The notes under the pieces are model-generated. The model was not told the origin of the DNA. It ran no database searches and saw nothing but the letters and a program-made list of their open reading frames with translations. Below, piece by piece: positions 874 to 41,384 of a DNA stretch of 64,000 nucleotides; the stretch's first letter is position 1; each line of letters opens with the position of its first letter. Source of the stretch: a virus (lineage: Duplodnaviria; Caudoviricetes); IMG/VR virus record IMGVR_UViG_3300032280_000442, positions 96,001-160,000 of that record. One strand, written 5' to 3'. The position numbers were made by a program, and so were the translations under genes.

Positions 874-923
874 TTATTATTTAGTTTCTTAAATTATAAT
901 TATAAATAGTTAAAACTACAGAA

Positions 924-1274
924 ATGGCACACCCGCTTTTACATTCAAAATCATCCGCCAAAAAATTTGGTGGTATTCCGGAGGATTATATCCATTTACA
1001 TAATTGGTTAGACGAGACTAAAGGATGGTATGGACATTCATTACATAGAATGTTTAGACATCATTCTGAGGGGATATTTGAGATGGAACGACTCTTTGGT
1101 CAATCATTTATAAATAGTGACGGAAAAGTCGTCTATACACGTTATGTGGGAGAACAACACGTAAAAGAGGATTGTTATAATTATATCCCTACAGCCCGTG
1201 AGTGGATACTAGCAATAGATGCTAAAGAAAAACCTATGTGGATGATAAGGACACTAGACATTAATGTAGATTAA
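924..1274 (+). CDS. DUF6915-like His-rich protein
   Basis: MAHPLLHSKSSAKKFGG..DY..LHNWLDETK..HRMFRHHSEGIF..E..FG..VGEQHVKED pattern. Confidence 0.75.
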   Translation: MAHPLLHSKSSAKKFGGIPEDYIHLHNWLDETKGWYGHSLHRMFRHHSEGIFEMERLFGQSFINSDGKVVYTRYVGEQHVKEDCYNYIPTAREWILAIDAKEKPMWMIRTLDINVD

Positions 1275-1297
1275 CATATTTATAATAAAAAAGATTT

Positions 1298-1999
1298 ATG
1301 CAACCACAAGTTACTGAAGAACAATTAAAATCATTAAAACTATTCGCTCTTTATCTAAACTCATATGGAGCTGAAACGGCAACTAAAGATTATTATATAG
1401 AATATTGTCAGATTGAATATGAAGATGATTATTTTCGTTCACCCGAAACAAGTATACCAATCGAAACTTATAAAAAAATTGATGAAGTTTTAAAAGAAAT
1501 ACTTGAAACTAATGAATTAATTGAAAATGCCACCACAGATTGTGAGCTTAGAGGACAATTAGAGATTGAAATTGATTGCATTGAAAGAACATTAACAGCG
1601 TCCGCAACTCAATGGGAATTTGAAAGTAACGGATTTGAGTTTTCAAAAACTTTAGAAGAAATTTCTGAAGATTATAGTGAAGAAACATATAACGAAGTTT
1701 TAAGGATATTTGAACTGATTGGTGAAAATGGTGAAGGTGAAGCAAGATTTCAAGGTGGTGGTGATAGTGGGTCTTTAGATGGCGATATGTATATCAACGG
1801 GTCATCTGAAGATTTACCAAAACTTATTGAAGATATGTTATATCACTGGTTAGAAGAAACTGATGTAGATTGGTATAACAACGAAGGTGGTCAAGGTAGT
1901 TTTATATTTAGTCCAAAAAATTCAGAAATTTATTTAAATTTAGAACAAAACTATGAAGAAAATGTAACAACACCAATGAACTTTGAAATACATTTCTAA
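1298..1999 (+). CDS. DUF6878-like acidic protein
   Basis: C-terminal FQGGGDSG and DWYNNEGGQG motifs; follows DUF6915-like gene. Confidence 0.65.
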   Translation: MQPQVTEEQLKSLKLFALYLNSYGAETATKDYYIEYCQIEYEDDYFRSPETSIPIETYKKIDEVLKEILETNELIENATTDCELRGQLEIEIDCIERTLTASATQWEFESNGFEFSKTLEEISEDYSEETYNEVLRIFELIGENGEGEARFQGGGDSGSLDGDMYINGSSEDLPKLIEDMLYHWLEETDVDWYNNEGGQGSFIFSPKNSEIYLNLEQNYEENVTTPMNFEIHF

Positions 2000-2000
2000 A

Positions 2001-2090
2001 AATACAAAACCCCCTGATTTCTCGAGGGTTTCTATAGTCAGGTTGGAAGTTTAATAAGTAAGTTAAAAGAGCTTTATGTTTTGACAAATT
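2001..2090. repeat. Imperfect direct repeat copy 1 (terminator plus 3' half of ncRNA); copy 2 at ~3014-3105
   Basis: tatagtcaggttggaagtt at 2033 and 3051, then taaaagag.ttta.gttttgac in both; both preceded by an aaaccc..agggttt hairpin. Confidence 0.85.
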
Positions 2091-2155
2091 AATGTTTTTT
2101 ATTATATTTACAAATATATGAATAAAAATAACAAATAAAATTAAAAAAAAAAATT

Positions 2156-2998
2156 ATGAAAAACTTAAAATTTTACATTTTTGGACTTTTGTTCTTGTCC
2201 TTAAATTTTATATCTTGTAACAAAGATGAAAATCTAAATCTAAATGTTGATAAACAATTAATCACTACTTCATCAAAAATTGATTTAACTAATGAATTAG
2301 ATTTTAACTCGGGTATTGATGTTTCAAACAACTATTCAAGTTATAGTAATAGATTAAATACAATTTCGCAATCAAATTCTGTATTATCTTGTGCAACAGT
2401 AACTGTTAATAATCCAACTCCCGGTGTTTTTCCAAAATCTTTTACGGTTGATTTTGGTACAGGTTGTAATAACAACGGAATAACTCGTTCCGGAATTATA
2501 ACTATAACAATTTCTAATTACATATTAAATAGTGGTAGTATAATGACCATCCAAAGAGGAAATAATTATTATGTAAATGGTGAAAAAATAGAAGGAACTA
2601 TTGTTTATGAAAATACCACTGTAAACCCTAATATTCCACAATGGACTAGAACTATAACAAACGGAAAAATTACTACTTCGTCAGGTATAGTATTTAATCA
2701 TTACGGAACAAGAACAGTTAAACAAATAGAGGGAGCAAATACATTAATTTTTGTAGACAACATTTATGAAATAACTTCAGGTAATCATACAATAATTAAA
2801 GAAGGTGGTTTTCCATTAAATATTACTGTTGTTGAACCATTAATTAAAAAATATACTTGTAATAATATTTCACAAGGAAAATTAAAACTACTTGGAAGTT
2901 TTTTAGATGGTATTTTAGATTATGGAAATAATCAATGTGATAATTTAGCTACTTACACACACTCTAATGGTAGTGCATATAACATAACATTAAATTAA
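2156..2998 (+). CDS. Bacteroidota-type surface lipoprotein
   Basis: Signal peptide II ending FISC followed by NKDE export-signal-like residues; TVDFGTGC..RSG.I and DYGNNQCDN motifs typical of Flavobacteriia lipoproteins. Confidence 0.8.
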   Translation: MKNLKFYIFGLLFLSLNFISCNKDENLNLNVDKQLITTSSKIDLTNELDFNSGIDVSNNYSSYSNRLNTISQSNSVLSCATVTVNNPTPGVFPKSFTVDFGTGCNNNGITRSGIITITISNYILNSGSIMTIQRGNNYYVNGEKIEGTIVYENTTVNPNIPQWTRTITNGKITTSSGIVFNHYGTRTVKQIEGANTLIFVDNIYEITSGNHTIIKEGGFPLNITVVEPLIKKYTCNNISQGKLKLLGSFLDGILDYGNNQCDNLATYTHSNGSAYNITLN

Positions 2999-3019
2999 TT
3001 CATAACAAATTAAAAATAC

Positions 3020-3051
3020 AAAAAACCCTCACCAAAAGTGAGGGTTTTTTT
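3020..3051. terminator. Bidirectional intrinsic terminator
   Basis: aaaaaaccctcac-caaaa-gtgagggttttttt between convergent units. Confidence 0.85.
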
Positions 3052-3052
3052 A

Positions 3053-3244
3053 TAGTCAGGTTGGAAGTTCAATAATAAAATTCTAAAAGAGTTTTAAGTT
3101 TTGACCGTTTAGGTTTGAAAATTTGAATATTGAGGTTTTAATGTCCGTCTTTATCACAATCATTTATCAATGCTCTCTGAATAATTTGTAAGGAAATGGT
3201 AGTTACCATCTTGTCTTATTAAATCCCTCCCGAACTCTGAACTA
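3053..3244 (-). ncRNA. Putative structured ncRNA (~190 nt) at end of DIP1984-like operon
   Basis: No ORF; 5' UAGUUCAGAGUUCGGGAG pairs with 3' CUUCCAACCUGACUA; UUUAAUAA/UUAUUGAA stem; AUGGU-AACU-ACCAU hairpin; heptad-repeat loop; ends at terminator. Confidence 0.6.
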
Positions 3245-3430
3245 TACTTTAGGAACCCCACACTCGAAACAAGTTTTAACAATGATAAAATATCCACCTT
3301 CGTTATACAACTTCAAATATTCCTCAGGGTTTTCCGGCTTAACATATTTGGTTGGTCTTAGATAAGTTCTCTCAACCGGTTTTTCTATATGACAAAAATC
3401 ACATTCGTCAAACTCCACACTACCACTCAT
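3242..3430 (-). CDS. Small zinc-ribbon protein
   Basis: CDFC and CFEC; likely start MSGSVEF at 3430, just after the upstream stop. Confidence 0.7.
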   Translation of the reverse strand: MSGSVEFDECDFCHIEKPVERTYLRPTKYVKPENPEEYLKLYNEGGYFIIVKTCFECGVPKV

Positions 3431-3431
3431 A

Positions 3432-3869
3432 TTATATTTCGGTGATTTGGTTATGGTTATCCAAAATATCCTGAAGGTCTTCAATCTGACCCTCCATAAT
3501 TTTAACCATCTCATCTCTATCAACCACTGATACCTCAGCAGTTTTTACCGGTGGATTCTCTCTATTTCGTGAGTAGTAATCAGTACTCACACCTTCTGTA
3601 CAATCCAAAGATTTTAATCTTGCAATTGTAGATTTTAATTCAGACAATCTGAATATTTTATCATACACCGGAGTGTTAGCCTTGTGGATTTTGGTTTTAA
3701 GTTCCACCAACTCATTACTTTTCTCATTGATTTGCTCAAGCATATCTTTAGGAGAATATGGTCTCACATTTCCAACCTCAACTGAATTGTACTGAGACAA
3801 TCTAGCGTAAAGTTCTTGGATTTCTTTAACCAATCGGTTTTTTTCTTTTAACGATTTCTTTACGTTCAT
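3432..3869 (-). CDS. DIP1984/DUF6847-like coiled-coil protein
   Basis: Family pattern: N-terminal helix, V.VG, KIHKAN, YYSR..E, V.V, LQDILDNHNQITEI C-terminus; 145 aa. Confidence 0.7.
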   Translation of the reverse strand: MNVKKSLKEKNRLVKEIQELYARLSQYNSVEVGNVRPYSPKDMLEQINEKSNELVELKTKIHKANTPVYDKIFRLSELKSTIARLKSLDCTEGVSTDYYSRNRENPPVKTAEVSVVDRDEMVKIMEGQIEDLQDILDNHNQITEI

Positions 3870-3921
3870 AAATTTGTTTTATTTGTTTAACTAATATAAT
3901 CTATTTTTTTCTAAAGTCAAA

Positions 3922-4260
3922 TTACCACACCTCATATGCACAAGTTTTAAACTCACTACCCCTTAATTCTTTAATGGAATCATCAATAGGCGTAACTATG
4001 TGTTTCTGAAAATCATCCGGTTTCATTAAAACTCCTTCTACAAATCCAAATGTTTTAGCAATACCATTTATTACCAACACCATATTATCAGTTTGATAAT
4101 CATCAGGTATTAAATTTGTTAAAACAATAAAATACTCTCTTGTATCAGGATATGACCAATGTAAATAAAAAAAACGATAGTCAGGGTGTCTCCTTAACTC
4201 AGGAAACTCCTTATACACCTCTTTTAAAATTAACTGTAATCGTTTAGGATATGGATTCAT
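3922..4260 (-). CDS. Hypothetical protein
   Basis: 112 aa ORF immediately after a Bacteroidota promoter. Confidence 0.7.
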   Translation of the reverse strand: MNPYPKRLQLILKEVYKEFPELRRHPDYRFFYLHWSYPDTREYFIVLTNLIPDDYQTDNMVLVINGIAKTFGFVEGVLMKPDDFQKHIVTPIDDSIKELRGSEFKTCAYEVW

Positions 4261-4264
4261 ACGA

Positions 4265-4295
4265 CAAAGATAATACTTTATTTTATATAAACAAA
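4265..4295 (-). promoter_or_regulatory. Bacteroidota sigmaA promoter (-33 TTTG, -7 TATCTTTG)
   Basis: TTTG 4292-4295, 19-nt spacer, TATCTTTG 4265-4272. Confidence 0.8.
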
Positions 4296-4321
4296 AAAAG
4301 GAACCAAATGTTCCTTTTTTT
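4293..4321. terminator. Intrinsic terminator
   Basis: aaaaaaaggaac-caaat-gttccttttttt. Confidence 0.8.
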
Positions 4322-5089: not shown

Positions 5090-5120
5090 CAAAGATAATA
5101 CTATTTTTTAACTTACCAAA
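5090..5120 (-). promoter_or_regulatory. Bacteroidota sigmaA promoter
   Basis: TTTG 5117-5120, N19, TATCTTTG 5090-5097. Confidence 0.8.
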
Positions 5121-6084: not shown

Positions 6085-6543
6085 TTATTTTAAGAATCTT
6101 AATTTGTATAATGTAGAGTAGATTAATTCTTGAATAGTATCAATTTGATTTTGAATAAACGATTCTTTAATAGTTTTTCTATTTTTTTCAACCATAGCAT
6201 CTAAAGCTTTAAAATATTTAATAGTTTGTTCATTACTCTTATATTCCTCCGTTTTAATTGATTTATAACCTGTAAGAACATCATATTTACCTTGATAACT
6301 TTCAATAATACCATCCACAAGTGCATCAATCCCTTCATAATACCCTTGTAGAGCTTTATGTTCTGAATATGATTTTGTTTGTAAATGAAATATATGTACT
6401 TGAGTTTGTGAATGTAATAAAATAGACACCATATCTTTAAAACCTGAGTCGGTTTTTGTGTTGTCTACTTTAATATCACCGTCTTCTTCTTGTTCTCTTA
6501 AAAATATATTTCTTTTTTTGAATTGTATTAAATTTTTTTCCAT
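6085..6543 (-). CDS. Ferritin/Dps-like protein (DUF5856-like)
   Basis: HIFHLQTKSYSEHKALQGYYEGIDALVDGIIESYQGKY...YKLRFL. Confidence 0.75.
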   Translation of the reverse strand: MEKNLIQFKKRNIFLREQEEDGDIKVDNTKTDSGFKDMVSILLHSQTQVHIFHLQTKSYSEHKALQGYYEGIDALVDGIIESYQGKYDVLTGYKSIKTEEYKSNEQTIKYFKALDAMVEKNRKTIKESFIQNQIDTIQELIYSTLYKLRFLK

Positions 6544-6544
6544 T

Positions 6545-6865
6545 TTATTTTCCTATTATCAGGTCGTCAAACCCTAGTTTATTCATTCCTCCAATTTCTT
6601 CATCATCTTTTAGTTCATCATACATATATGCTTTAACTACCGATGTAATACTTTGTTCCGCTTGGGCTATTTTACTTTCCATCCAATCGTCCAATTGTTC
6701 ATTACCTTCTTCTTCCATTCTCTCCCACATTTTCTCAGCTAACTTAGCGATGATGTATAGCTGTTGTTTCGCCATATACGAACCTTTACCTTCACCCTCT
6801 TTAATGGTTTTCATTTTGGTAACCAACTTTTCAAGTTGTTTTTCTGTTAATATAATGTCCTTCAT
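6545..6865 (-). CDS. Hypothetical protein with ILTE leader
   Basis: Start reassigned to MKDIILTEKQL; MAKQQL..LDDWMESKI..A motif; TATTTATA at 6878-6885. Confidence 0.75.
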   Translation of the reverse strand: MKDIILTEKQLEKLVTKMKTIKEGEGKGSYMAKQQLYIIAKLAEKMWERMEEEGNEQLDDWMESKIAQAEQSITSVVKAYMYDELKDDEEIGGMNKLGFDDLIIGK

Positions 6866-7788: not shown

Positions 7789-7819
7789 CAAATATAATAC
7801 TTTTATTTTAATAAACAAA
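7789..7819 (-). promoter_or_regulatory. Bacteroidota sigmaA promoter
   Basis: TTTG 7816-7819, N19, TATATTTG 7789-7796. Confidence 0.8.
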
Positions 7820-21525: not shown

Positions 21526-21556
21526 CAAAGATAATACTTATTTTTTATAACACAAA
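21526..21556 (-). promoter_or_regulatory. Bacteroidota sigmaA promoter
   Basis: TTTG 21553-21556, N19, TATCTTTG 21526-21533. Confidence 0.75.
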
Positions 21557-34457: not shown

Positions 34458-34514
34458 TAATATTTAGTTAAATTAGGTAACAAAGATACTAAAAAAATTA
34501 TGTTTCCCAAATTT

Positions 34515-41296: not shown

Positions 41297-41384
41297 ATAA
41301 GCAAAGATACGAATAAAATTATTATTATCAAAACTTTATTAGTTTTTTAATCCTCTTATATTTATGATAATAACTTTTAAACAG

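Follow-up and report, generated by a model that had tools for sequence, protein, structure and literature searches.

A host-like lipoprotein gene between two copies of a structured RNA end in a Flavobacterium jumbo phage

A single lipoprotein gene, apparently of host origin, lies at the 3′ end of a conserved structured RNA gene in a freshwater Flavobacterium jumbo phage. It is bounded by an intact RNA on one side and a truncated, apparently decaying copy of the RNA end on the other. This arrangement is probably the scar of a one-time, staggered capture of a host gene, followed by spread of the resulting cassette through homologous recombination, with no recombinase or att site involved. We infer the order of the events, the mechanism of the capture and any function of the lipoprotein.

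The insertion site and its repeated RNA end

The window, the whole 64,000-nucleotide stretch of DNA that was analysed, covers bases 96,001-160,000 of a 308,574-bp IMG/VR phage genome with direct terminal repeats. The phage is one of a group of jumbo phages of freshwater Flavobacterium; a search of window positions 900-4300 against INPHARED found no DNA match. The site lies between convergent units, with plus-strand DUF6915 and DUF6878-like genes facing a minus-strand operon. This operon reads, in order, g4260, a DUF6847/DIP1984-like gene and the gene of a 62-residue CxxC protein (sm62), beyond which come ~200 bases without ORFs and a strong terminator. The DUF6847 protein, searched against PDB sequences, returned a weak uL29 match and nothing else. 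The features of the region are listed below, by window position; relatives are designated hereafter by L numbers.

1298..1999, plus strand: DUF6878-like gene (Pfam PF21798, E 8.5e-06), the left neighbour of the site in most relatives
1997..2032, no strand assigned: terminator A, the old RNA terminator (T-tract in the minus-strand sense, and hairpin), now the terminator region after DUF6878
2033..2096, minus strand: the orphan, the final ~64 nt of an RNA body of subtype T2, which breaks off at 2096 (from T2 identity and alignment ends)
2081..2110, plus strand: promoter-like site across the junction, with TTG in the orphan, N19, and TATATTTA in the cassette, 46-75 nt upstream of the ATG
2097..2141, plus strand: AT-rich 45 nt between RNA homology and host homology, which may be diverged host intergenic DNA (69 nt in host loci)
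2142..3009, plus strand: putatively host-derived segment, 76.7% nucleotide identity over 868 nt to bacterial contigs
2156-2998, plus strand: lipoprotein gene (CDS), between the DUF6878-like gene and the RNA
3011..3050, minus strand: terminator B, the intrinsic, bidirectional terminator of the RNA, which also ends the lipoprotein gene (14-bp stem, then minus-strand T-tract)
3050..3246, minus strand: intact structured RNA, subtype T1, ~197 nt (202.6 bits with model R1, see below)
3242..3430, minus strand: sm62, 62-residue CxxC...CxxC protein, found in some relatives and missing from others
3432..3869, minus strand: DUF6847/DIP1984-family gene (Pfam PF20935; NCBIfam NF038048 below its cut-off)
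4265..4294, minus strand: promoter-like site, exact TTG-N19-TAnnTTTG, upstream of the operon g4260, DUF6847, sm62 and RNA

The RNA end and its terminator occur as two direct copies, the orphan copy (1997-2096) and the copy attached to the RNA (3011-3117), with the lipoprotein gene between them. This duplication was the starting point of the original prediction, and only its coordinates have been refined. Each copy is composed of a minus-strand T-tract, a G+C hairpin whose loop and stem differ between the copies, and ~65 nt of the RNA 3′ part. The copies are identical at 81/107 positions overall and at 28/40 over the T-tract plus hairpin. Over the RNA part (2033-2085 vs 3051-3106) the identity is 47/56, and this is more than terminator similarity: the likeness reaches ~65 nt past generic terminator sequence, contrary to the possibility, raised at the outset, that it might be limited to the latter. 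A 19-mer, TATAGTCAGGTTGGAAGTT, is found exactly twice in the window (chance expectation 0.03 at ≤3 mismatches), and the repeat element has two occurrences only in the whole 308,574-bp genome. Nearly all relatives retain the minus-strand T-tract of the terminator (UUUUGUAU...); some of them, L004, L005, and L021, have an interrupted T-run on the plus strand.

Exact TTG-N19-TAnnTTTG sites are observed on the minus strand of the window at 4265-4294, 5090-5119, 7789-7818, 21526-21555, 34481-34510, and 41302-41331. These six promoter-like sites share GTATTAT(C/A)TTTG, and each is located just upstream of a minus-strand gene. These minus-strand operons seem to be expressed from host-type Bacteroidota promoters. 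When one mismatch is allowed, the pattern is enriched in the window (88 sites vs 56.5 expected).

The structured RNA and its two subtypes

The RNA is real, conserved and structured, with strong covariation, and it belongs to no Rfam family. That it is a genuine RNA, with the lipoprotein gene at its 3′ end, had been predicted from the sequence and is borne out. Its architecture consists of a long closing stem that joins the ~35 nt at either end, together with an inner helix, a hairpin, and a conserved GUCAAAACUUAAAACUCUUUU stretch. RNAalifold applied to a MAFFT alignment of 13 close relatives yields nine pairs with changes on both sides. A covariance model built from those close relatives (R1) detects the RNA behind DUF6847 or DUF6878 homologues of only 31-52% identity, with 48.6 bits in L035, 40.4 in L118, and 28 in L116; L123 reaches 23.6 bits (E 0.0063), in a smaller search only. 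In a 17-sequence model alignment, fitted as such to the model, 95.9% of the cells are paired and 20/31 pairs are changed on both sides, as compared with 30-48% paired in slid controls. Furthermore, when the distant copies are folded singly, each one closes with a long stem, and the sequences of these stems are unrelated. Each genome harbors one copy of the full RNA. A gathering scan of the whole window against Rfam, together with E-value scans of positions 1950-3300 and of L118, gave terminator look-alikes only, and a scan of the window for tRNA and tmRNA genes found none.

Among close relatives, two subtypes are found: T1 (...GACCGTTTAGG), that of the window's attached copy, and T2 (...GACAAATTAAT). 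Their halves covary: in the extension of the closing stem, A-U and A-U (T1) are replaced by G-C and U-A (T2), and in the inner helix, U-G and G-C (T1) by G-U and A-U (T2). DUF6847 proteins are 86-98% identical to that of the window at T1 loci (n=24), vs 67-77% at T2 loci (n=21). The RNA subtype tracks the DUF6847 type in 45/45 loci, whereas each DUF6878 type is found with both subtypes. The RNA therefore belongs genetically to the DUF6847 operon, with the exchange point on its terminator side.

The 5′ side of the RNA also varies. The sm62 gene, in the interval between DUF6847 and the RNA, is variable in both RNA subtypes (the window, L014, L017, and L008 vs L015, L018, and L022). The RNA begins at the stop codon of the gene before it, whichever that is, the UAG being in every case inside a conserved AUAGUUCAG; this side is thus a second variable slot. 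In the distant relatives L115-L123 (about 6430-6650), the RNA has no terminator and is directly followed by a co-directional small membrane-protein-like gene, and in L123 a tRNA-like sequence follows the RNA. The motif GUCAAnAC..AAAACUCUUU remains recognisable in distant relatives, though their closing stem is wholly changed.

The lipoprotein cassette and the occupancy of the site in relatives

The insert (2097-3010) contains a single ORF, that of the lipoprotein, and no integrase or recombinase. The protein displays a signal peptide, whose lipobox Cys precedes NKDE; no function could be assigned to it from Pfam, NCBIfam, PHROGs or the ESM Atlas. Host identity spans from 14 nt before the ATG to 11 nt past the stop of the gene. 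All source-named members among its 190 homologues are from Flavobacterium or Flavobacteria, and the best non-phage ones are 73% identical and chromosomal. The host locus is ordered HtpG, DUF2721, lipoprotein homologue, partner gene, and TonB-dependent receptor. The gene is in all likelihood host-derived, the host-to-phage direction being read from this distribution and not from a rooted tree. GC content fails to set the insert apart from the phage (26% vs 31% for the window). In the bacterial contigs L126 and L129, the lipoprotein gene opens a conserved pair (278 and 271 residues, stop and start three bases apart) beside DUF2721; a TonB-dependent receptor follows the pair in L126 and L127, and the phage acquired the first gene only. 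The sequence TTCATAACA after the lipoprotein stop may be a relic of the start of the HExxH gene found in L004 and L021 (see below), although the host alignment, which runs to 3009, explains it at least equally well.

The lipoprotein gene occurs in only two other IMG/VR contigs, hence three carriers in all. The three phages have the junction AATTAATGTTTTTTATT in common, which indicates a single capture. Identity among their cassettes is ~99%, vs only 38-78% for the flanking DUF6878. Between the window and L108, identity is ~60% up to about 2070, a point inside the orphan, and 99-100% beyond it, and one crossover maps there; the L113 orphan is itself a T1/T2 chimera. Compared with the T2 relative L015, the window has 96% identity in g873, 96% in g4260, and 91% in g5092, vs only 72% in DUF6847. 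With the T1 relative L108 the pattern is reversed, at 97% for DUF6847 and 59% for g4260. The backbone of the window is T2-like on both sides, and the block of lipoprotein, RNA and DUF6847 genes resembles a T1 donor in its sequence. This neighbourhood is mosaic at nearly every gene boundary.

Relatives were retrieved with the 19-mer, which gave 25 viral and 55 metagenome loci, reduced to 60 distinct contexts. The site is occupied in them as follows:

36/60 contexts: empty site, with the stop of DUF6878 37-41 nt away from the 19-mer, a single terminator, and a single intact RNA
14/60: co-directional HExxH protein gene adjoining the terminator
3/60 (L017, L142, L178): NAD-epimerase/dehydratase adjoining the RNA, with the lipoprotein cassette beyond the epimerase in L178
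2/60 (L164, L180): 50-residue gene and endonuclease VII-like gene
1/60 (L168): cytidylyltransferase
1/60 (L008): lipoprotein cassette adjoining the RNA; the genome of the window, which shows the same state, is left out of this count
3/60 (L012, L175, L186): left flank too short to read

Relatives look as the original prediction expected: one intact RNA beside a DUF6878-like gene, without insert, is the commonest state, and other cargo is found at the same site (epimerase, endonuclease VII-like, cytidylyltransferase, and HExxH genes). The RNA is intact in all 57 contexts with a readable flank, whatever adjoins it. The junctions vary with the cargo: those of the epimerase and endonuclease lie at the terminator, without duplication of the RNA, and an orphan is present in the lipoprotein lineage only.

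The epimerase/dehydratase (Pfam PF01370, 3.2e-56; L113:6866-7783, L028:2485-3402, and L142) is found between the RNA terminator and three kinds of left neighbours, namely DUF6878, the lipoprotein cassette, and the HExxH gene, and it is flanked by terminator hairpins. The endonuclease VII-like protein (L164:2390-3104, minus strand, and L180) is 193 residues long, matches phrog_1035 (8.9e-24) and ends with a HIDH...NLRPLW...N..K tail; it has no Pfam match. In both loci its cassette lies directly against the RNA 3′ end and brings a different terminator hairpin of its own, which replaces the usual one. The HExxH-like protein, of 134 or 322 residues (L004:5653-6057, L006:10031-10999), belongs to no Pfam family and carries a SHEW(I/V)HE(F/Y)Q motif. 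Its gene takes the place of DUF6878 in the 14 contexts, three of which (L004, L005, and L021) have a disrupted plus-strand T-run in the hairpin.

Origin of the orphan and competing explanations

The RNA adjoining the lipoprotein gene is native throughout. Its attached end is T1, as is the rest of the molecule, and empty-site T1 relatives are near-identical to it (96.6% in L163, 98% in L109; also L018). The orphan, on the other hand, is closer to T2 (60/65 identity to L014) than to the attached T1 copy (53/67). Alignments of the left flank end exactly at 2096 with T2 relatives and at 2085 with the T1 relatives L109 and L163. Three substitutions of the orphan, T2052, C2072, and T2077, are private to this genome, at positions invariant elsewhere, and suggest decay. 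The terminator-proximal stretch of the orphan possesses the four-A variant TTAAAAGAG, as do the T2 relatives L137 and L143, whose DUF6878 is 85-88% identical; from this shared variant, the stretch is plausibly the recipient phage's own old RNA end. The claim that the orphan is the original 3′ end is thus plausible for this terminator-proximal part, as far as the recipient is concerned. It fails for the present RNA, which is T1 while the orphan is T2.

The scenario we favour takes the site to be the outer boundary of a transcription unit made of g4260, DUF6847, sm62 (in some phages), the ~197-nt RNA, and its terminator. A piece of host chromosome carrying the lipoprotein gene would have been captured there once, by illegitimate (non-homologous) joining. 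The left joint would lie inside a subtype-T2 RNA gene, ~100 nt from the RNA end (window 2096), and the right joint just beyond the T-tract of an RNA terminator (window ~3010). With the joints offset in this way, the insert would be flanked on either side by the final ~100 nt of the RNA gene, of which one complete copy would survive. The cassette would then have moved among diverged phages by homologous recombination, the conserved RNA end and terminator serving as the left homology arm. The genome of the window would be a recombinant, in which a T2-like backbone (from DUF6878 leftward and from g4260 rightward) received a ~1.8-kb block, roughly 2078 to 3880, from a lipoprotein-carrying T1 donor. 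This block would comprise the distal orphan, the lipoprotein gene, the T1 RNA, and the T1-type DUF6847. It had been proposed that the cassette supplied a diverged 3′ half alone, but the attached half is T1 like the 5′ half, and the whole block of lipoprotein, RNA and DUF6847 appears to have come in together. The events may have occurred as a one-step capture between two co-infecting genomes, or as a capture with later replacement of the RNA unit.

It is possible, if rather doubtful, that the orphan has been retained for a job, providing the -33 TTG of a lipoprotein promoter and the terminator of DUF6878; this would be compatible with the capture scenario. The site 2081-2110 is the best sigma-70-like match of the region (11/12) and fits TTG-N19-TAnnTTTG with one mismatch. 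TTGACA at 2081-2086, which is T2-specific (TTGACC in T1), lies 16 nt before TATATT; the site also fits TTG-N19-TAnnTTTa at a sensible distance from the ATG, and the junction is identical in the three carriers. It may drive the lipoprotein gene, although such matches are common by chance: the window contains 88 sites with ≤1 mismatch vs 56.5 expected. Moreover, with carriers ~99% identical, retention is untried by time, and the three private changes fall at positions that are invariant in functional copies.

Free-standing homing endonucleases of T4-like phages are known to promote intronless homing. An unlikely alternative has the endonuclease VII/HNH-like protein cut the RNA end or terminator in co-infecting phages, with break repair driving cargo turnover and co-conversion in the same manner. 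The phrog_1035-matching gene does occupy the same intergenic slot, against the RNA 3′ end, in L164 and L180, and breakpoints cluster within the same ~100 nt. A homing nuclease acting at this site is possible, but its role here is putative: the gene is missing from the site in the window, Pfam has no match for the protein, and mosaicism proceeds gene by gene all along the region without any nuclease. Given this mosaicism, the RNA end is one breakpoint among many and not a proven special hotspot. The recombination hotspot of the original prediction consequently holds for the gain and loss of cargo, and not for crossovers in general. We regard as improbable a stronger version, in which the 3′ end of the RNA, with its terminator, is a dedicated docking site for cargo. 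In this version, the nuclease would cut the 19-mer/terminator junction of naive genomes, repair would repeatedly load genes, and selection for the RNA would force duplicative outcomes with one intact copy. If true, the docking site would be a recombinase-free phage analogue of tRNA-gene islands.

Genomic islands integrate into the 3′ ends of tRNA and tmRNA genes. The site resembles such islands in that the insert lies in the 3′ part of a structured RNA gene, the intact gene is kept, and a partial 3′ copy stands at the opposite end of the insert; relatives with an empty site or with other cargo add to the likeness. The prediction had accordingly proposed a tRNA-att-like event, namely site-specific integration of an element bringing its own replacement 3′ half, with the orphan as the original end of the present RNA. 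We consider this very unlikely. The 1-kb insert is one lipoprotein ORF without integrase, an identical att core is missing, and other cargos use other junctions, those of the epimerase and endonuclease lying at the terminator with no duplicated RNA. The preserved RNA gene is, moreover, not completed by the insert. Direct repeats do flank the insert at the RNA 3′ end, 81/107 identical and with an exact 19-mer; they are of two subtypes and far longer than a typical core.

The proposal had leaned on a better pairing of the orphan with the 5′ strand. The pairings quoted, CUUAUUAAA/UUUAAUAAG and GCUCUU/GAGAGC, are present. They rest, however, on T2052 and C2072, found only in the window's orphan, and they differ from the covariation-supported pairs. 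In the supported register, three of the four subtype-diagnostic pairs are broken by the orphan, which gives A·C, A·A, and U·U there. The closing-stem duplex amounts to -22.9 kcal/mol with the orphan vs -22.6 with the attached copy. The chimera of 5′ half and orphan folds at -39.4 kcal/mol vs -34.4 for the native RNA body, a point in favour of integration; chimeras with ordinary T2 3′ halves, however, reach -36.3 to -39.4 kcal/mol, and the unmutated orphan of L108 likewise -39.4. Better pairing was therefore rejected as evidence. Among simulated, randomly mutated T2 ends, 5.75% fold as well as the window's orphan, and the improved pairing that two of the three private substitutions bring with the present 5′ half is treated as chance. 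As for an assembly artefact, conceivable in a metagenome-assembled IMG/VR record, it has next to no probability: the same junction and two-copy layout are found in contigs from two other samples, 3300032330 and 3300027969 (that of the latter also listed in the metagenome collection, as Ga0209191_1002118).

The capture scenario makes this case an ordinary gene-capture and recombination scar, a moron at a plastic site, and not a new mechanism. Morons, in the concept of Hendrix and Juhala, are lone additional genes that bring along a promoter and a terminator and come between two genes standing side by side in related phages. The lipoprotein gene corresponds to this description as a single, non-phage-like gene of apparent host origin, preceded by a promoter-like site and followed by its own terminator, a hairpin with T-runs in both directions at 3020-3050. 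It separates units adjacent in most relatives, as the 36 empty contexts illustrate. It differs in that the insertion is staggered over the end of a structured RNA gene, with ~100 nt duplicated, and in that its promoter may be a hybrid created at the junction. A likeness also exists with PeSLs, elements present in many copies across hyperplastic regions (PMC2839356; Comeau et al. 2014, PMC4122927). Here too, a short conserved regulatory sequence with a terminator stem-loop flanks a non-essential gene and is a point of homologous exchange between diverged phage genomes, as seen in the ~60% to ~99% transition with L108 and in the chimeric orphan of L113. In contrast to PeSLs, the element is the end of a single-copy RNA gene, with two copies in 308 kb and one full RNA, and its second copy would be a by-product of the insertion.

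Functionally, the lipoprotein is perhaps a surface or superinfection-related moron. A role in superinfection or in receptor masking makes a reasonable candidate, judging from its surface-export-like motif and from the TonB-receptor neighbourhood of its host counterpart. The locus offers a clean example of a giant phage gaining a host gene, which would then have been passed on to diverged relatives via a short conserved non-coding sequence. It also brings independent genetic support to the idea that the ~197-nt RNA behind DUF6847 matters to the phage, since this RNA is single-copy, covarying, linked to its protein partner, and intact in 57/57 readable contexts.
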